64,000 nt of DNA from an uncultured Candidatus Saccharibacteria bacterium (lineage in GTDB: Bacteria; Patescibacteriota; Minisyncoccia; Phycocordibacterales; Phycocordibacteraceae), in the NCBI GenBank assembly GCA_964593365.1, contig CAZQGQ010000001.1, forward strand, positions 50,153-114,152, written 5' to 3'. Under the pieces are notes generated by a model. It was not told the origin of the DNA. It saw only the letters and a list, made by a program, of their open reading frames with translations, and made no database searches. The position numbers and the translations under genes are program-made. How positions within the stretch are numbered: the stretch's first letter is position 1; every line of letters begins with the position of its first letter. Below are positions 49,136 through 56,798 of this stretch, piece by piece.

Positions 49136-50845
49136 ATGTTCTCGCTCCACGACCCCATTGATGCTGCTATTCGCGACGAGCTTCTCGAGCACGATGACCT
49201 TATCGCGGCGCTCCTTTCGCGCCGAGGAATCAAAACTAAGGAAGATGCCGATGCTTTCCTCTTTCCTTCATACGACGAGCACATAGGAGATCCGCTGCAG
49301 ATACTTAATATGCCAAAAGCAGCCGGAAGGATTGCAAAGGCGATAGAAACGGGAGAGCGAATTACCGTCTGGAGCGATTATGACTGCGACGGTATCCCGG
49401 GCGGAACCATACTCCACGACTTTCTGAAGAAAGCCGGAGCGAATTTCACTAACTACATCCCGCATCGCCATGAGGAAGGGTTCGGCGTGAACACGCTTGG
49501 CGTCGAGAAGCTCGCGAAAGAGGGAACGACCTTGATGATCACGGTTGATTGCGGGATTACTGACGTCGAGCCCATCAAACGTGCGCAAGAGTTAGGAATC
49601 GACGTCATCTTGACCGACCATCACCTCCCTGCGGAAGTGCTTCCGCCTGCATTCGCCGTCATCGACCCGAAGCAAGAGGGTGAGACGTATCCGTTTCGGG
49701 ATTTCTGCGGAGCAGGACTTGCCTGGAAGCTTGCGTGCGGGGTGCTCGCGCACGGATTTGTCGGACGAGAAAACATACAGATCGGCTGGGAGAAGTGGCT
49801 TTTGGATATGGCAGGGCTCGCGACTATTGCCGACATGGTCCCGCTTGTCGGAGAGAACCGCGTCATCGCAAAGTACGGGCTCCTCGTCATGCGCAAATCT
49901 CCGCGACTCGGACTCCAAGCCCTTTGCAAAGCTGCGCGCGTCAATCAGCGCTTTATTACTGAAGACGATGTCGGTTTCATGATCGCTCCGCGAGTGAATG
50001 CTGCAAGCCGCATGGGGAATCCACGTGATGCATTTGAGCTTTTCACGACAACAGACGAAGCTCGGGCAGACGCGCTTGCAAAAGAACTAGAGAAAGCCAA
50101 TCGTGCGCGGCGAGCACAGGCAGCAGCGATCACGCGTGCAGTGCATGAGCGCTTGGCAGAACGGAAACTCACGACGACAGAAATTCCAGACGTGATCGCG
50201 CTTGGGGATCCTGACTGGCGTCCAGGACTGTTGGGACTTGTAGCAAACACCATCTCTGAAGAATACGGACGCCCCGTCTTCTTGTGGGGACGAGAAGGAG
50301 GGAAGACGTTGAAGGGATCGTGCCGCGCAGGCCGTCCTGGTGTTTCGGTAGTTGAGATTATGGCCGGTACGCAGGATGTGTTTGAAGGACATGGTGGGCA
50401 CGGGCCAGCCGGCGGTTTCACCGTCAAAGACGACGCTGTTTTCTTTCTCGAAGAGCGACTATGTAAATCCTATGCGGCGCTTCCAAGTTCGGGAGAAGCT
50501 GCTGTGCTTGCGATGGCGGACGCGTCGCTATCCATGCAGGAAGCAACGGGAGAGCTTCTCGATAAGCTCTTGAAGCTCGCGCCCTTTGGCATGGGAAATC
50601 AAAAGCCGATCTTCGCCTTCCAGGGTGTCTCGCTTTCTAAAGTCACGTGGTTCGGGAAATCCGAAGAGCACCTGAAGCTCACCGTAGGTTCAGTCGAAGC
50701 CATTTCGTTCTACGCAAAGCGCCAGCTCGGGAAAGGATCAAGCGAGCTCGCACCAGGCAAAGAAGTGAGCATACTCGCAAGTCTTGAGCGGGATCAGTTC
50801 TCACGAGGACGCCCGGTGCGCCTCCGGCTCGTCGCTGTCCGCTAG
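49136..50845 (+). CDS. recJ: Single-stranded-DNA-specific exonuclease RecJ (DHH/DHHA1)
   Basis: VWSDYDCDGIPGGTIL, ILTDHHLP, GGGHGPAAGFTV. Confidence 0.85.
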   Translation: MFSLHDPIDAAIRDELLEHDDLIAALLSRRGIKTKEDADAFLFPSYDEHIGDPLQILNMPKAAGRIAKAIETGERITVWSDYDCDGIPGGTILHDFLKKAGANFTNYIPHRHEEGFGVNTLGVEKLAKEGTTLMITVDCGITDVEPIKRAQELGIDVILTDHHLPAEVLPPAFAVIDPKQEGETYPFRDFCGAGLAWKLACGVLAHGFVGRENIQIGWEKWLLDMAGLATIADMVPLVGENRVIAKYGLLVMRKSPRLGLQALCKAARVNQRFITEDDVGFMIAPRVNAASRMGNPRDAFELFTTTDEARADALAKELEKANRARRAQAAAITRAVHERLAERKLTTTEIPDVIALGDPDWRPGLLGLVANTISEEYGRPVFLWGREGGKTLKGSCRAGRPGVSVVEIMAGTQDVFEGHGGHGPAGGFTVKDDAVFFLEERLCKSYAALPSSGEAAVLAMADASLSMQEATGELLDKLLKLAPFGMGNQKPIFAFQGVSLSKVTWFGKSEEHLKLTVGSVEAISFYAKRQLGKGSSELAPGKEVSILASLERDQFSRGRPVRLRLVAVR

Positions 50846-50868
50846 AAGGACCGTGCTACATTCTATAA

Positions 50869-51291
50869 ATGCAATTTACGCTCTATGCGGACGGCGGTTC
50901 CAGAGGAAACCCAGGACCTTCAGGCGCTGGAGCCGTCGTATTTGATGCGATTGGAAAACGGGTAGCTGAAGTCTCCGACTATCTTGGCGAGACGACAAAT
51001 AATGTCGCCGAATACGAAGCAATCATCCGCGGCCTCAAAGCGTTGCTTGCGGCCTTCCCAGAAGGATATTTCAAGAGTGCTTCCGTTGAGGTGCGTATGG
51101 ATAGCAAGCTCGTTATCGAGCAGATGAAGGGTGCCTATAAGGTGAAGCATCCGAATCTGATACCTCGAAACTTCGAGGCGAAAAACCTCATCGCGCGCAA
51201 TTTCTCACAGATATCGTTCGTGCATGTGCCGCGAGAGAAGAATACGGATGCAGACGAGCTGGCGAACCTCGCGATGGATCGCAAGAAATAA
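50869..51291 (+). CDS. rnhA: Ribonuclease HI
   Basis: LYADGGSRGNPGPSGAG..NNVAEYEAI...HVPREKNTDADELAN. Confidence 0.85.
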   Translation: MQFTLYADGGSRGNPGPSGAGAVVFDAIGKRVAEVSDYLGETTNNVAEYEAIIRGLKALLAAFPEGYFKSASVEVRMDSKLVIEQMKGAYKVKHPNLIPRNFEAKNLIARNFSQISFVHVPREKNTDADELANLAMDRKK

Positions 51292-51294
51292 CCC

Positions 51295-52803
51295 ATGACG
51301 GACAAACTGCTCTTAGTCGGTGTTATCGGCTTTGCGCTCGGTGTTCTTATGGCCTCGTACTTGGGCAGCGTTAGTCTCGTATTTTTCTTTGCGTTTCTTG
51401 CGGTTGTGTTCTTCGGTCTCTGGCGTTTGCGAAAGCAGGCAGTACTTATTTTTGTATGTGTTTTGTTGCTTACCGCTTCCATCGGAGCGATGCGAATGCA
51501 ATTTGTGGCAGAAGCGCTTCCAGATGAGTTCGTCCCGCTGGTAGGGACTGAAGTAGAGATTGAGGGAGTCGTCGTAGCAGATCCTGACATTCGCGAGACC
51601 AGCCAGCGGATAACGGTTGAAGTAGAAAAGGATGGAGTACAAACGCGCGTACTTGCCGTAGCGCCATTGTATCCATCGGTTCGCTATGGCGAGCGAGTAG
51701 TAGCTCGCGGAGAGTTTACTTTGCCTGAAGCATTTGAAACGGATATGGGAAGACAATTCTCCTACGACAAATTCCTCGCTAAGGATTCCGTCTTTGCGGT
51801 TCTCCAAAATGCATCGCTTGAGGTGATCGCGCCGCGCGAGGGGTTCGTAGCACATGTCTTCGGTCCGTTAGCTGACTTTAAAAATATAGGCATTGAAATG
51901 CTGGGCCATGCTCTTCCCGAGCCGCACGCCTCTTTAGCATCCGGTCTTATTCTTGGCGGGAAGCAGGGATTGGGCGAAGACCTTCTCGACAGCTTTATCG
52001 TCTCAGGGCTCGTGCATATCGTCGTACTCTCCGGATACAACGTCATGATCGTCGCGGAGTTCGTGCTCCGCCTCTTGGGATTTTTGCCGAAGCGAACGGC
52101 TGCGTGGTTTGGCGTCGCGACTATCGCTGCGTTCGTTCTTGCAGCTGGAGCAGGTGCGGCGTCCGTCCGCGCAGGTCTTATGGCGGGCATTGCAGTCTTT
52201 GGGCGCGCAACGGGAAGAACGTATGACGCGTTTCGCGCGCTTCTCCTGGCGGGAGTCGTCATGGTGCTCGCAAGCCCGTATTCGCTTGCGTATGACCCTG
52301 GGTTCCAACTTTCGTTTATAGCGACCTTGGGCCTCATCTTCGGTGCGCCGATCGTGGAGCGCTGGCTCCATTTTGTGAAAAGTGCTTTCCTTCGGGAAAT
52401 CGCTTCAGCAACCATCGCTGCTCAGATAAGCGTGTTGCCGCTGCTTATCTATCAAAACGGGCTCTTCTCGCTCGTTGCGCTCCCCGTAAATCTTATCGTT
52501 CTTCCCATTGTCCCAATCGCGATGCTCGCGTCAGCGGTTGCTGGGCTTGGCGGCTTTATTGTGCCTGCGCTGGCAACGCTTATAGGATTGCCTGCGTATC
52601 TCCTCCTTTCCTACATCATCAGCATCGTTGAAATCTCCGCGGCTCTTCCGCTTGCTGCGCTCTCAATCCCTGCCTTCCCGTTTATCTTTACGATTCTCGC
52701 GTACGCAGGCCTTATATACCTGGTGTGGCGCTCCTATGACGCGTCAGCGAACCGTTTCTCAACCACTGCCCAGTTAACGTTATCGAGAAAAGCATCGACG
52801 TAG
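51295..52803 (+). CDS. comEC: DNA internalization competence protein ComEC/Rec2 (competence domain only)
   Basis: 502 aa, multi-TM. DUF4131-like N-terminus and Competence domain (SGLVHIVVLSGYNVMIV). Lacks a C-terminal MBL domain. Confidence 0.8.
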   Translation: MTDKLLLVGVIGFALGVLMASYLGSVSLVFFFAFLAVVFFGLWRLRKQAVLIFVCVLLLTASIGAMRMQFVAEALPDEFVPLVGTEVEIEGVVVADPDIRETSQRITVEVEKDGVQTRVLAVAPLYPSVRYGERVVARGEFTLPEAFETDMGRQFSYDKFLAKDSVFAVLQNASLEVIAPREGFVAHVFGPLADFKNIGIEMLGHALPEPHASLASGLILGGKQGLGEDLLDSFIVSGLVHIVVLSGYNVMIVAEFVLRLLGFLPKRTAAWFGVATIAAFVLAAGAGAASVRAGLMAGIAVFGRATGRTYDAFRALLLAGVVMVLASPYSLAYDPGFQLSFIATLGLIFGAPIVERWLHFVKSAFLREIASATIAAQISVLPLLIYQNGLFSLVALPVNLIVLPIVPIAMLASAVAGLGGFIVPALATLIGLPAYLLLSYIISIVEISAALPLAALSIPAFPFIFTILAYAGLIYLVWRSYDASANRFSTTAQLTLSRKAST

Positions 52804-53327
52804 TTTTTCTTTTCTGCAGGCACGTAGTCAACCATGTAGGCGTGCTCCCAAAGGTCGACTGCCATAAGGACAGGGAGGCCCGATAGCTGCCCGAGCTCAT
52901 GGTCTGCAACAAATACCGTCTGCAGCACGCTTCCTCGAGGATCCCAGTACACCACTACCCATCCAATGCCGCGCATTCCGGCTACTTCCTTTATATGCGC
53001 GATAAAGTCATCAAAGCTCCCGTATTTTTCTGCTGCGACCTTTCGGAGATTTCCCTCTGGGCTTGCAACTGAAGGACCTCCTTCAAGCTGCTCGAAGTAG
53101 TACTCGTGCATGCGCATGCCGTCGAACTCGAAGTTATAGCGGCGGCGAAGCTCGTTTATAACGAATGCGTTGTCTTCAGCTCCTTGTTCCTTGAGGGCTT
53201 TGATCTTCTCGCTTATGAGGTTCACGTGCTTCACGTAGCCCTGGTAGAGACCGAGGTGCACGTCGATCTGCTTTTGGGAGAGTCCTTTGAGTTCTGGAAG
53301 GGCGAACGTTTGGGCGGTGTAGGTCAT
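52734..53327 (-). CDS. sodA: Fe/Mn-family superoxide dismutase
   Basis: I prefer the ATG at 53327 (MTYTAQTFALPEL...). FDGMRMHEYYF, GIGWVVVYWD, DLWEHAYMVDY signature. The track ORF extends to 53540. The C-terminus overlaps comEC by 70 nt, convergent. Confidence 0.75.
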   Translation of the reverse strand: MTYTAQTFALPELKGLSQKQIDVHLGLYQGYVKHVNLISEKIKALKEQGAEDNAFVINELRRRYNFEFDGMRMHEYYFEQLEGGPSVASPEGNLRKVAAEKYGSFDDFIAHIKEVAGMRGIGWVVVYWDPRGSVLQTVFVADHELGQLSGLPVLMAVDLWEHAYMVDYVPAEKKNYVDAFLDNVNWAVVEKRFADAS

Positions 53328-53373
53328 ATACGTGAAGTATATACCTCGGCCTCGGTGATATGCTGGTGAAAAC

Positions 53374-54231
53374 GTGGCCATAGATCGCCGACAGCTCAAG
53401 TATGGTTTTCTCTTTGCCCTGGTAGGGATCAATGTCCTTATCTTCACTCTCGTGCTTTTGCGTCCGTCACACATACTTACTGTTTCGTTCCTTGATGTGG
53501 GGCAAGGCGACGCGATTTTAATCGAAAGCCCAACAGGCACTGACGTCTTGATCGATGGCGGGCGCGACCGTTCTGTCGTTCGAGAACTCCCGAAGCGCCT
53601 CGGACCGTTCGATCGAACAATCGACCTTGTCGTTGCAACGCATCCGGACGCCGATCATATAGGCGCTCTGCCAAGCGTGCTGGACCGCTATCAGGTGAGC
53701 TACGTTCTTGAGCCGGGCGTTTCAAGCGACACCTCGCCAACCAAAGCGTTTGCTGCATCCGTTTTAGAAGAAAAAGGCGTAACGACAATGCTCGCGCGGC
53801 GCGGTATGCGAATCAACCTTGGCGGAGGTGCTCATATGGATGTGTTGTTTCCAGATCGGAATGTATCCGGACTTGAAACCAACACCGGGTCGGTCATCGC
53901 TCGACTGGTGTATGGCGAAACGTCGTTCCTCCTTACTGGAGACGCGCCCTCTTCAATCGAGAACTGGCTAACGCTTCTCGACGGAGAGGAACTTAAGAGC
54001 AATATTCTAAAAGCGGGGCACCATGGATCCCGAACTTCGACGAGCGAAGCGTGGCTTTCTGCTGTTGATCCGTCAGTGGTCGTCATATCTGCCGGCAAAG
54101 ATAACTCATACGGGCATCCGCATGCAGAAGTGCTCGAAAACATCCAAGCATCGGGAGCGTCTATGGAAGCAACGCTTGGGGAAGGGACGGTGACCTTCGT
54201 GAGTGACGGGAAGAGCGTACGGAGAAAATAA
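53374..54231 (+). CDS. Metallo-beta-lactamase-fold protein resembling the ComEC C-terminal MBL domain
   Basis: N-terminal TM helix, then FLDVGQGDAILIESPTGTDVLIDGG...VATHPDADHIGAL...AGHHGSRTS. Confidence 0.75.
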   Translation: MAIDRRQLKYGFLFALVGINVLIFTLVLLRPSHILTVSFLDVGQGDAILIESPTGTDVLIDGGRDRSVVRELPKRLGPFDRTIDLVVATHPDADHIGALPSVLDRYQVSYVLEPGVSSDTSPTKAFAASVLEEKGVTTMLARRGMRINLGGGAHMDVLFPDRNVSGLETNTGSVIARLVYGETSFLLTGDAPSSIENWLTLLDGEELKSNILKAGHHGSRTSTSEAWLSAVDPSVVVISAGKDNSYGHPHAEVLENIQASGASMEATLGEGTVTFVSDGKSVRRK

Positions 54232-54264
54232 AAACCGCCCCGTGGATACGAGGCGGTTTTTATG
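54229..54264. terminator. Bidirectional terminator
   Basis: AAAAACCGCCCCGTGGATACGAGGCGGTTTTTAT. Confidence 0.6.
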
Positions 54265-54272
54265 GAAGCTTT

Positions 54273-54518
54273 CTATTTGAGTATTCCGGCCTTCTTGAGA
54301 GTCTTGAAAGCGCCGTTCTTCTTGATGTGGCGTAGTCCTGCGATAGAAATGTCCACAAGAACCATCTTATTGAGTTCAGGGACGAAGACGCGTCGCTTCT
54401 GGAGGTTTGCCTTGCGGCGGACCTTTCCTGTTGGGTTGAACTGGGTTGCGCGCGTGCGGTTAGAGTACCGACCGCCAATCTGCGTGCTTTTTCCAGTGAT
54501 CTCGCATTCGCGTGCCAT
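54273..54518 (-). CDS. rpmB: 50S ribosomal protein L28
   Basis: MARECEITGKSTQIGGRYSNRTRATQFNPTGKVRRKANLQKRRVFVPELNKMV... Confidence 0.8.
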   Translation of the reverse strand: MARECEITGKSTQIGGRYSNRTRATQFNPTGKVRRKANLQKRRVFVPELNKMVLVDISIAGLRHIKKNGAFKTLKKAGILK

Positions 54519-54563
54519 AGTTCCCGCATGCTAGCATAGAGGCTAGCGTTTAGGCAAACCTAT

Positions 54564-55193
54564 ATGGAATCGATGCTTTTCACGATAGTAGTCCTCATTC
54601 TCTCGATCATCGTGCACGAGGTGGCTCACGGCTATGCCGCTGAGGCTCTCGGAGATCCGACCGCAAAACTGGCGGGTCGCCTCACCTTGAACCCCGTTCC
54701 TCATATAGATCCGATCGGATCCATCCTCATCCCGGCCGTCATGGTCCTTACTAACGCCGGCATGCTCTTCGGATGGGCAAAGCCCGTTCCCTATAACCCG
54801 CATAACCTGCGAAATAAGCGTTGGGGAGAAGCGATCGTCGGTATCGCTGGCGTTGCGACAAACATCCTCATCGCCGTTGTCTTCGCCTTTCTCGCACGTC
54901 TTGCCTTTGGAGCAGGGGAGGAAACATTTGGCGGCGTGCTTGCGACGGTGTCCTTGGTGAACTTATTCCTCGGTCTTTTCAACCTGATTCCATTTCCGCC
55001 TCTTGATGGGTTCACGGTGCTTCGCGGCATACTCCCGTATCGTTACGCGATCTCGATGCGTCACCTTGAAGAGCGCATGTGGGGCGGGGGGATCTTCACG
55101 CTCGTCATCTTCCTCCTGGTGTTCAGCTACGTGCTTGCGACACCGTTCTACAAGTTCGTCCTGTGGGTGTTCGGATTCCTGATCGGAGCCTAA
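54564..55193 (+). CDS. Site-2 protease family (peptidase M50) membrane metalloprotease
   Basis: HEVAHG (HExxH) in TM1; NLIPFPPLDG motif. Confidence 0.8.
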   Translation: MESMLFTIVVLILSIIVHEVAHGYAAEALGDPTAKLAGRLTLNPVPHIDPIGSILIPAVMVLTNAGMLFGWAKPVPYNPHNLRNKRWGEAIVGIAGVATNILIAVVFAFLARLAFGAGEETFGGVLATVSLVNLFLGLFNLIPFPPLDGFTVLRGILPYRYAISMRHLEERMWGGGIFTLVIFLLVFSYVLATPFYKFVLWVFGFLIGA

Positions 55194-55260: not shown

Positions 55261-55650
55261 ATGGAACTTACTTTCTTGCTCGCTAAGGTGTTCGGCCTCT
55301 ATGCCTTGATTACCGGTGTCGCGATCATCATGAACCGCAGGCACATCATGCTCGCGGTCGCGGCTTTGGTTGAAGAGCGCTTCGCCCAGCTTCTCACCGG
55401 TATCGTCTCGCTTCTCTTCGGTCTCTTCCTTATTAACATCCATAACGACTGGTCCACGTTCTTTACCGGACTCGTCTCGCTCTTTGGATGGCTCGCGTTT
55501 CTAAAAGGACTGTTCTATCTCTTCGCTCCTGAAGCTACGCTTGGAAGACTGATCAAGAAATTGAACGCACGCAAGTGGTACATGATCGACGGAGGCATCG
55601 CCGTCATCGCCGGTCTTTACTTGGCAGGAACCGCGTACGGCTGGTTCTAG
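55261..55650 (+). CDS. Hypothetical membrane protein (4 TM)
   Basis: 129 aa, hydrophobic helices. Confidence 0.45.
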   Translation: MELTFLLAKVFGLYALITGVAIIMNRRHIMLAVAALVEERFAQLLTGIVSLLFGLFLINIHNDWSTFFTGLVSLFGWLAFLKGLFYLFAPEATLGRLIKKLNARKWYMIDGGIAVIAGLYLAGTAYGWF

Positions 55651-56121
55651 CTAGTCCTCTTGGGGAGGAGTTGGATCCACGATTCGTTTCTGACTTACTC
55701 GCGCCAGACTCCCAGAAGGTCCTCGTGGTTGAGGACCTTTTGGCGTTTCCTCGAGAAGCCGGAGTGCTTCTGCAATCCATTCGCGCTGAACCTTCGGCGC
55801 ATACGGTGGGCCTTTTCCTCGTATGTTGTTCGACCATTCCCTTACGGCTCGTTCTACTATCCGCTTTTGGCTCTCTGGCGGGTAGAGCCACTCAAGCCAC
55901 TTCTTCGTTCTCGTGAAAGGCTCTTCTTGCTCCAGATTCTTAGTAATTACATCAAGCCTTCCTCGTCCATATCTTCCTACAGGCACTTCTTCTCCCGTTA
56001 CGGTTGCGATAGCTTTTTCTAGGGCAATGCTCACTTGATGAAGTGTGCGCGTATCGTCATATGCTTCTGCCGCTTTAGATTGACGGGCGTCTTGTGTAGG
56101 TTGGCGTTCCCCGGGCATCAT
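55651..56121 (-). CDS. Hypothetical protein (strand assignment uncertain)
   Basis: A 156 aa minus-strand ORF and a 120 aa plus-strand ORF (55660..56022) cover the same DNA. The minus ORF has more protein-like composition. Confidence 0.3.
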   Translation of the reverse strand: MMPGERQPTQDARQSKAAEAYDDTRTLHQVSIALEKAIATVTGEEVPVGRYGRGRLDVITKNLEQEEPFTRTKKWLEWLYPPESQKRIVERAVREWSNNIRGKGPPYAPKVQREWIAEALRLLEETPKGPQPRGPSGSLARVSQKRIVDPTPPQED

Positions 56122-56153: not shown

Positions 56154-56798
56154 ATGAAAATAACCAAGTACGGCCACTCCTGCCTCCTGATCGAAGAGAA
56201 TGGGGTACGGATCATCACGGACCCAGGGATCTGGAATACTACTCCTGACGCTACCGGGGTGAGCGCGGTGCTCATCACGCACGAACATCCAGACCATAGC
56301 GATGTGGAACAAGTCAAAGCAATCCTTGGGCGAAACCCAGAGGCGCAAGTCATTACGCATAAAGGCCTCGGATCGAAACTAGAAGAAGCTGGAATCGCCT
56401 ACACGGAAATCAAAGCCGGCGAAACAATCGACGTGCAGGGAGTGTCAGTGGAGAGCTGCGGGACCGATCACGCCATCATTTACGGAGACGCGTCCCCGTG
56501 CCAGAACACCGGGTATCTGATCGCGGGAAAATTGTTTGCGCCGGGAGATGCGCTGCATGACGTTCCTCCGGGACAGATAGAGATCCTCGCGCTTCCGTGC
56601 GGAGGTCCGTGGATGCGCTTCTCAGACGCGATCGATTACGCGAAATCTCTGAAGCCAAGGGTCGTGTTCCCGATACATGACGCCATGTACATCGAGGAAT
56701 TCCGAGGCGGACTCGTTCCCCGAGTCATCGGAGGAAGCCTTGAATCAGCCGGAATCTCTTTTATTGATATGCCAGCCGGGGCAACTAAAGAATTCTAA
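56154..56798 (+). CDS. MBL-fold metallo-hydrolase
   Basis: MKITKYGHSCLLIEENGVRIITDPG...VLITHEHPDHSD. Confidence 0.75.
   Translation: MKITKYGHSCLLIEENGVRIITDPGIWNTTPDATGVSAVLITHEHPDHSDVEQVKAILGRNPEAQVITHKGLGSKLEEAGIAYTEIKAGETIDVQGVSVESCGTDHAIIYGDASPCQNTGYLIAGKLFAPGDALHDVPPGQIEILALPCGGPWMRFSDAIDYAKSLKPRVVFPIHDAMYIEEFRGGLVPRVIGGSLESAGISFIDMPAGATKEF

Follow-up and report, generated by a model that had tools for sequence, protein, structure and literature searches.

DNA taken up in transformation universally enters the cell through ComEC, the cooperation between its nuclease and its channel is under active study, and the COG system has long had separate groups for the membrane part and for the hydrolase part of the protein. 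In full-length ComEC/Rec2 (TIGR00361; PDB 30bt and 9vc6; ComEC of Bacillus subtilis) three domains follow each other on a single chain: an OB fold (DUF4131), the Competence channel domain and a metallo-beta-lactamase (MBL) domain. We describe here a locus from an uncultured Candidatus Saccharibacteria bacterium, a small-genome member of the Paceibacteria and of the candidate phyla radiation (assembly GCA_964593365.1, contig CAZQGQ010000001.1, positions 50,153 to 114,152 of the forward strand; these 64,000 nucleotides (nt) are called the window below, and positions are counted from its first letter), where the same three domains, in the same N-to-C order and on the same strand, are encoded as two polypeptides 570 nt apart, with a reverse-strand superoxide dismutase (SOD) gene between them. 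ComEC variants without the OB fold or without the lactamase domain have been documented, and the 2018 survey of Pimentel and Zhang models them as domain gains and losses (PMC6299819; also PMC12455585); in that survey, the ‘DC-profile’ (DUF4131 + Competence, no Lactamase_B) is taken as loss of the nuclease domain (PMC6299819). The first gene of our locus has exactly that profile but, in contrast, the locus has kept a nuclease of ComEC type, in the form of a distinct protein with a membrane anchor. The open-access literature searched contained no ComEC-type nuclease encoded separately beside such a gene, no description of a split ComEC and no account of ComEC domain architecture in Patescibacteria, which is weak evidence.

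An earlier note on this DNA, made from the letters alone, had proposed that ComEC is split here, and its three open reading frames (ORFs) were recovered at the same coordinates. The locus consists of:

51295..52803, forward strand: comEC-N, 502 amino acids (aa); three N-terminal helices, OB fold (DUF4131) and Competence channel domain.
52734..52803, both strands coding: convergent 3′ overlap of comEC-N and sod, 70 nt.
52734..53327, reverse strand: sod, 197 aa, ATG start; Fe/Mn-family superoxide dismutase.
53328..53373: divergent intergenic spacer between sod and the MBL gene, 46 nt, read from the sequence.
53374..54231, forward strand: comEC-C (the MBL gene), 285 aa, GTG start; anchor helix and ComEC-type metallo-beta-lactamase (nuclease) domain.

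The comEC-N product matches PF13567 (DUF4131) with 52.6 bits (cut-off 31.6) and PF03772 (Competence) with 155.9 bits (cut-off 23) over aa 218-479, and a Pfam search gave no MBL domain in it. That domain is found in the product of the second gene, which matches PF00753 (Lactamase_B) with 60.9 bits and covers positions 419-660 of the 663 of the TIGR00361 ComEC_Rec2 model. Neither half reaches the equivalog cut-off of this model, 190 bits (49.7 for comEC-N, 124.2 for the MBL protein), and the canonical architecture, with DUF4131, Competence and MBL on one polypeptide, gives way to one in which the MBL domain has a gene of its own. Alignment to the solved 801-residue ComEC 30bt_A places comEC-N, up to its residue 481, on residues 142-491 (E 6e-24), and the MBL protein, from its residue 11, on residues 512-789 (E 2e-38, its best sequence match in the PDB); the two genes therefore tile one full-length ComEC with about 20 loop residues between them, and only about 10 residues of the loop (30bt_A 492-501) are without a counterpart in either half. 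In the AlphaFold2 (AF2) models, the comEC-N product (mean predicted local distance difference test score, pLDDT, 87.9) has a beta-strand domain at aa 86-179 between helices, and the MBL protein (pLDDT 95.3) begins with a helix, residues 5-28, followed by the MBL fold. Hydropathy gives the latter a single N-terminal membrane segment (aa 11-29), in agreement with the membrane anchor that had been proposed for it. The best Foldseek match to its model is 9ic4, the ComEC MBL domain of Moorella glycerini (E 1e-24, template-modelling scores 0.79/0.84), and the next fold, Pce, comes nine orders of magnitude behind (E 1e-15). The prospect, raised in the note, that the MBL gene might belong to a non-ComEC subfamily is thus contradicted by both 30bt_A and 9ic4, and the split stands. 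The metal-binding motifs (HxDxDH, D, HHGS, H) are kept as H90-P-D92-A-D94-H95, D190, H216, H217 and H248, each of these residues being at least 90% conserved in 43 stand-alone MBL homologues; the H-x-D-x-D-H motif is as described for the ComEC nuclease in PMC12455585. The same source describes 9ic4, to which our protein is 32% identical with the same catalytic motifs; 9ic4, however, is a domain excised for crystallography, whereas the domain of our protein stands alone in nature and comes with a membrane helix of its own. Two intact conserved genes together encode every ComEC domain.

Where the chain is broken matters for what the two products could do. There are three lysine or arginine residues ahead of the anchor helix of the MBL protein and four in the ComEC-N tail past its last helix, and these positive charges on both new ends suggest that the break falls in a cytoplasmic loop, with the nuclease domain outside; because the loop would be cytoplasmic, each product could insert with its original topology. 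We consider it quite likely that ComEC is made here as two polypeptides, the outcome of an ancient gene fission, which reassemble. According to this model, the first gene would supply the OB fold and the transmembrane channel and the second a single-helix-anchored MBL nuclease, the break lying in a short loop: ahead of it is the final helix of the channel, and after it comes the helix by which the nuclease domain reaches the outer face. The two proteins would meet again in the membrane, the anchored nuclease docking on the OB-fold/channel protein; it would degrade one (non-imported) DNA strand outside, while the channel would import the other. Physical assembly, nuclease activity, DNA uptake and operon structure are what we infer from these genes.

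The window comes from a metagenome assembly and the comEC tail, as will be seen, is not conserved as ComEC, so one may wonder whether split or overlap could be an artefact, be it misassembly, a frameshift or a pseudogene in decay. We regard this as negligible. The segment 51295..54231 is identical in two Logan assemblies from separate sequencing runs (SRR6448211 and SRR6448204); gene calling on these two and on a JGI metagenome contig yields identical overlapping genes of 502 and 197 aa; the same architecture recurs in dozens of genomes; and both halves are modelled with high confidence and have their functional residues conserved.

The division extends far beyond this genome. Among the matches listed for ComEC-N, 120 out of 120 homologues lack the MBL domain and have DUF4131 and Competence only (468-600 aa, mostly 480-520), and those that are named come from Parcubacteria, Paceibacterota or Patescibacteria. 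Likewise, about 120 of the best 150 cluster representatives (at 50% identity) matching the MBL protein are stand-alone proteins of 260-310 aa, and full-length ComECs (∼800 aa) enter the list only at rank 93, with 42-46% identity. Both halves are already labelled ComEC: in source annotations, the names given to the MBL genes that stand alone are ‘competence protein ComEC’ or ‘ComEC/Rec2 family’. We sampled 80 related loci from GTDB species genomes (L001-L080). The order recJ, rnh, comEC-N, sod (reverse), MBL gene, L28 (reverse), M50 recurs in them, with sod immediately after comEC-N in 71. In a neighbour-joining tree of ComEC-N, which is rough and was rooted with the N-terminal parts of fused ComECs, sod lies in between on every deep branch; loci lacking it are nested inside and, for this reason, look like secondary losses. 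The comparison indicates that the layout is ancestral in a large Paceibacteria clade and goes back to an ancient, clade-wide gene fission. The fission with sod inserted that the note had envisaged is hence retained as a fission, but not as an event of this genome.

Several observations concern the locus as a whole. The block recJ-rnh-comEC-N-sod-MBL-L28-M50 (49136-55193 in the window) is ordered alike across L001-L080, in genomes with ComEC-N sequences that are only 41-65% identical. Inserted genes are for the most part found in the interval from sod to the MBL gene (L002, L004, L005, L013, L043 and others, 0.6-1.5 kb). In L055 (DASPLI010000001.1, 742 kb) the block is broken at this very place: recJ, rnh, comEC-N and sod are together, and an intact MBL gene (P0141) is found elsewhere with L28 and M50, behind genes for S15, NYN and a DksA-like protein (L087/L088, presumably of the same genome as L055). 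Neither comEC nor sod was found within 5 kb of the displaced MBL gene, and both halves are intact. Only in L079 does comEC-N directly adjoin the MBL gene, here a degenerate one, with a 4-nt stop/start overlap (L079:7506-7509) and no sod; its nested position in the tree means that sod was probably lost secondarily. Finally, some record titles are at odds with content: L037 (JBLNCF010000007.1) is called ‘Bacillota bacterium’ and many CA* records (L001-L072) ‘uncultured Candidatus Saccharibacteria’, while all have a Paceibacteria-type locus, probably the result of mis-binning or of generic labelling.

How the split arose is a more delicate matter. One possibility is that sod landed in the part of a still undivided comEC that encodes the loop, and that its arrival caused the fission, the read-through of comEC into sod then being a scar rather than a later compaction. 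The ComEC homology ends one or two codons from the sod stop, a deep subclade with the 70-nt overlap has ‘LIY’ of the last helix abutting that stop, merely ∼10 loop residues are unaccounted for, and an intervening sod is the ancestral condition in the tree that was sampled. On the other hand, no outgroup turned up in which comEC is fused at this place in the genome, and the halves of L079 are adjacent without sod (this looks secondary because of its nested place, in a tree that is rough). Insertional fission is therefore an attractive idea that we hold only tentatively, leaning somewhat against it. Fission first, with sod inserted afterwards, would be the alternative order of events.

The overlap itself is defined by two stop codons, the TAG of comEC at 52801-52803 and that of sod at 52734-52736, and amounts to 23 comEC codons plus the stop, as the note had it; because both limits are stop codons, it is independent of the choice of start codon or annotation. 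On the forward strand it encodes ComEC aa 480-502 (SYDASANRFSTTAQLTLSRKAST), and on the reverse strand the last 22 SOD residues plus the stop. The note had left room for the tail beyond about 52733 not being translated, and for an end of homology before 52734 that would leave no real overlap. ComEC family homology does stop at about aa 478-481 (52728-52737), practically at the sod stop, from which it follows that the 23 overlapped codons are not conserved ComEC sequence. The overlap of the reading frames is nevertheless physically real, as no in-frame comEC stop precedes 52801, and an untranslated tail finds no backing in the sequence for the same reason. The tail is short and basic, is mostly predicted to be disordered (aa 486-502 have pLDDT <50 in the AF2 model) and, judging from its relatives, is evolutionarily dispensable.

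Why comEC ends where it does can be read from the SOD codons. In the overlap the two frames have their third codon positions in common, and in that register an antisense stop needs a SOD Tyr after a pyrimidine-ending codon, or a His or Gln whose preceding codon ends in T. Tyr, His and Gln are all absent from the final 21 residues of SOD, so that the length of the overlap is no accident and the first antisense stop is the one formed by a conserved Asn-Tyr pair of SOD (AAC-TAC, which is the comEC TAG). Having no stop of its own after the last helix, comEC-N reads into the 3′ end of sod, antisense, and halts at this Asn-Tyr stop; the 70-nt overlap would have come about incidentally, as the genome was compacted or when sod was first inserted. 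A motif shared by the tails of a subset of homologues, RFSTTxQL..AST, was considered as a functional tail and rejected, the same peptide being found antisense to sod where comEC has already ended. On the forward strand, opposite the SOD C-terminus, ‘..RFSTTxQLxFxxxAST’ followed by a stop or Tyr can be read, clear or weakened, in nearly every locus, even where comEC stops 20 to 880 nt upstream (e.g. L049, 818 nt, and L065), and tblastn alignments of the tail peptide run through comEC stop codons. The tail motif is a reflection, on the opposite strand, of the C-terminus that is conserved in SOD (N-Y-V/I-D/E-A-F-x-x-N-V/L-N-W-x-V-V-E-x-R-F).

Could the overlap nevertheless be of use, for instance if 3′ transcripts coupled sod and comEC through transcriptional interference or antisense RNA, so that less DNA is taken up under oxidative stress? 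An overlap exists in 41 of the 71 related loci, the 70-nt state recurs on distant branches, and a terminator scan of 51000-54600 gave three terminator-like sites, below chance expectation, none of them in or near the overlap. But length and frame vary freely: besides the window, 14 loci have 70 nt, 10 have 47 nt in another frame (among them L001, the closest to the window in the tree), 6 have 4 nt and 7 genomes have 79, 73 or 85 nt, and in 30 loci the two genes, both intact, do not meet at all, being up to 880 nt apart. Replacing the T at 52737 by A or G, a single change that leaves the SOD protein as it is, would make comEC end 66 nt earlier, exactly the state of the six 4-nt genomes. As to the recurrence of 70 nt, it is fully explained by the conserved SOD Asn-Tyr codons. 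A functional overlap is for these reasons highly improbable, and the overlap, which is real, gives the impression of read-through that is tolerated, not of a feature under selection. A separate case is provided by L071 (7263-7347) and L074 (7425-7509), with 85 nt: a five-residue C-terminal extension of SOD is antisense to the codons of the last ComEC transmembrane helix, which means that in these two conserved ComEC sequence is overlapped.

Returning to the two-polypeptide ComEC, the fate of the MBL gene among the relatives has to be faced. At the 80 loci, it is intact with both motifs in 44 and degenerate in 16; it was not found within the stretch examined at 11, and in the remainder one end is missing at a contig end. 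In a subclade including metagenome-assembled genomes (MAGs) labelled Adlerbacteria and Kaiserbacteria, the MBL position holds a conserved helix-anchored protein of ∼157-246 aa, from which HxDxDH, HHGS and most of the C-terminal half are gone, whereas DASILRALG, PxWQRxIDA and SSSTPxGVYISDG are kept; comEC-N is intact there. The remnants are located as follows:

L047, L052, L058, L059, L068, L069, L072-L076 and L079, and also L030, L035 and L064: MBL remnant, e.g. L079:7506-8006 and L069:2987-3484.

In L071 the remnant is split into two ORFs. The ∼165-aa anchored remnants look like a retained pseudo-enzyme.

Several of these facts weigh against a ComEC reassembled from two halves. HxDxDH is lost in the 16 degenerate cases and no MBL gene was found at the 11 loci, all with an intact comEC-N, so the channel is not strictly dependent on the MBL nuclease. 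Linkage of the halves is not required, given the relative (L055) with its MBL gene elsewhere, and their proximity is weak evidence of functional coupling, because the order of the whole block is conserved. Moreover, ComEC nuclease activity in vitro is higher with the OB fold on the same chain, according to PMC12455585. One could then imagine that the MBL protein works independently of the channel, as a surface nuclease digesting environmental DNA or RNA for nucleotide salvage in a host unable to make nucleotides. Its gene is in its own transcription unit with a convergent gene between it and comEC-N, it can sit apart as in L055, and 27 of the 80 relatives have kept comEC-N although they lack an active MBL. 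Against this, the domain is of the ComEC-specific MBL subtype and is preceded by a helix exactly as in full-length ComEC, and the dead, anchored remnant conserved at the same position argues for a role as structural partner. We therefore find a lone nuclease unlikely, and keep to the two-part ComEC as the better account.

With regard to the gene in the middle, the C-terminal SOD domain (PF02777) scores 75.7 bits (cut-off 20.9), with DLWEH conserved in the clade, while the N-terminal alpha-hairpin (PF00081) stays at 18.6 bits, under the cut-off of 27, the phmmer alignment of aa 12-196 to solved SODs nevertheless including the hairpin. The best PDB matches are 1WB8 and 1B06 (Sulfolobus) and 1COJ (Aquifex), at E ∼1e-23 over aa 12-196. 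The NCBIfam SOD equivalogs give 88 against a cut-off of 300, so far under it that no metal can be assigned. The note had called the first metal-binding region atypical, and the VHLGLYQGYVKH motif that it cited, instead of HHxKHH, is indeed found. This oddity is smaller than it seemed. The Sulfolobus and Aquifex Fe/Mn enzymes also lack HHxKHH and carry an H(Y/F)xxH(H/Y)KGYV-type motif in a similar first ligand region (VHYNGHHKGYV and PHFEAHYKGYV, versus VHLGLYQGYV here), and all four ligands align: H24 and H74 with H33 and H84 of 1WB8, D158 and H162 with its D-x-x-E-H motif. The ligand H24 and the Tyr of GYV are retained, and the changes come down to one residue fewer and a Leu at the position of a second-sphere His (H30 in the numbering of E. 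coli MnSOD). Our SOD shares with the Sulfolobus and Aquifex enzymes a His at the ‘DHE/ENH’ position; unlike them, it is one residue shorter in this first region, carries Leu for that second-sphere His and falls under the cut-offs of the Pfam N-terminal domain and of the NCBIfam equivalogs. In 71 clade sequences the H24, H74, D158 and H162 columns are conserved, and VHLALYEGYVKH, FEFDGMRMHEYYFEQ and DLWEHAYMVDY are near-invariant. A longer sod ORF, from a GTG at 53540 (268 aa), was set aside in favour of the ATG at 53327, because the homologues are mostly of 194-203 aa and start with MTYT. The family has about 3000 matches in Paceibacterota, the best 120 at 68-77% identity and annotated Fe-Mn SOD, and SOD genes are common in Patescibacteria, 66-83% of the MAGs in PMC8672522 having one. 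On these comparisons, the enzyme, unrelated to ComEC, is ordinary for the clade and functional-looking.

Upstream of comEC-N are two genes of the same strand:

49136..50845, forward strand: recJ (Pfam DHH/DHHA1/RecJ_OB), upstream of comEC-N.
50869..51291, forward strand: RNase H gene, rnh (Pfam RNase_H), directly upstream of comEC-N.

The gaps are of 23 nt (recJ-rnh) and 3 nt (rnh-comEC-N), and the three genes probably form one transcription unit; most of the 80 related loci have recJ and rnh in this order too. The MBL gene must be transcribed separately, because the convergent sod intervenes, and the promoters of sod and of the MBL gene would both have to lie in or next to the 46-nt spacer at 53328-53373; a consensus scan of 51000-54600 detected no promoter-like (sigma-70-like) site, and a GGTGA is found 4 nt 5′ of the GTG start of the MBL gene. 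An Rfam scan of the whole window returned four tRNAs far from the locus, and nothing else. On the 3′ side, the MBL gene is followed by L28 (reverse strand) and then by the M50 peptidase gene, 54564-55193 (forward), whose start is ambiguous: the first ATG gives 209 aa, as in the JGI call, and the Logan calls give 206 aa. Further on come a hydrophobic protein of 129 aa that weakly matches DUF308 (55261-55650, forward) and, abutting it convergently at 55650/55651, a 156-aa protein without a Pfam match (55651-56121, reverse). Two kb downstream of the locus lies a second, unrelated MBL-fold gene (56154-56798, forward; Lactamase_B_3, 214 aa, no membrane helix noted), kept in few related loci only (L028 and L050).

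To a specialist, a split of this kind is ancient and tidy but not surprising, and the overlap is simply explained. Tentatively, and with less confidence than we have in the split itself, we would go one step further and suggest that the ComEC of a large part of the Paceibacteria may be a two-subunit machine, that many ‘nuclease-less’ ComECs could be splits of this sort, and that the partner may also have a structural role beyond catalysis, the dead ∼165-aa remnant being kept in place. It is more speculative still to add that the insertion of sod made the split and that the convergent overlap couples the expression of both genes. Whatever its origin, the overlap provides a textbook case of how a conserved neighbour on the opposite strand fixes the stop of a gene and mimics conservation of a protein tail. 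A nuclease that is naturally encoded, clade-wide, on a separate anchored polypeptide would mean that covalent linkage to the channel is not essential, and would offer a ready-made system for the study of assembly in trans. It also calls for caution, as ‘Competence-only’ or ‘DUF4131+Competence’ ComECs need not have lost nuclease function. For bacteria of the candidate phyla radiation, which depend on external nucleotides and DNA, the meaning of ‘ComEC present’ calls in genome surveys would be refined accordingly.

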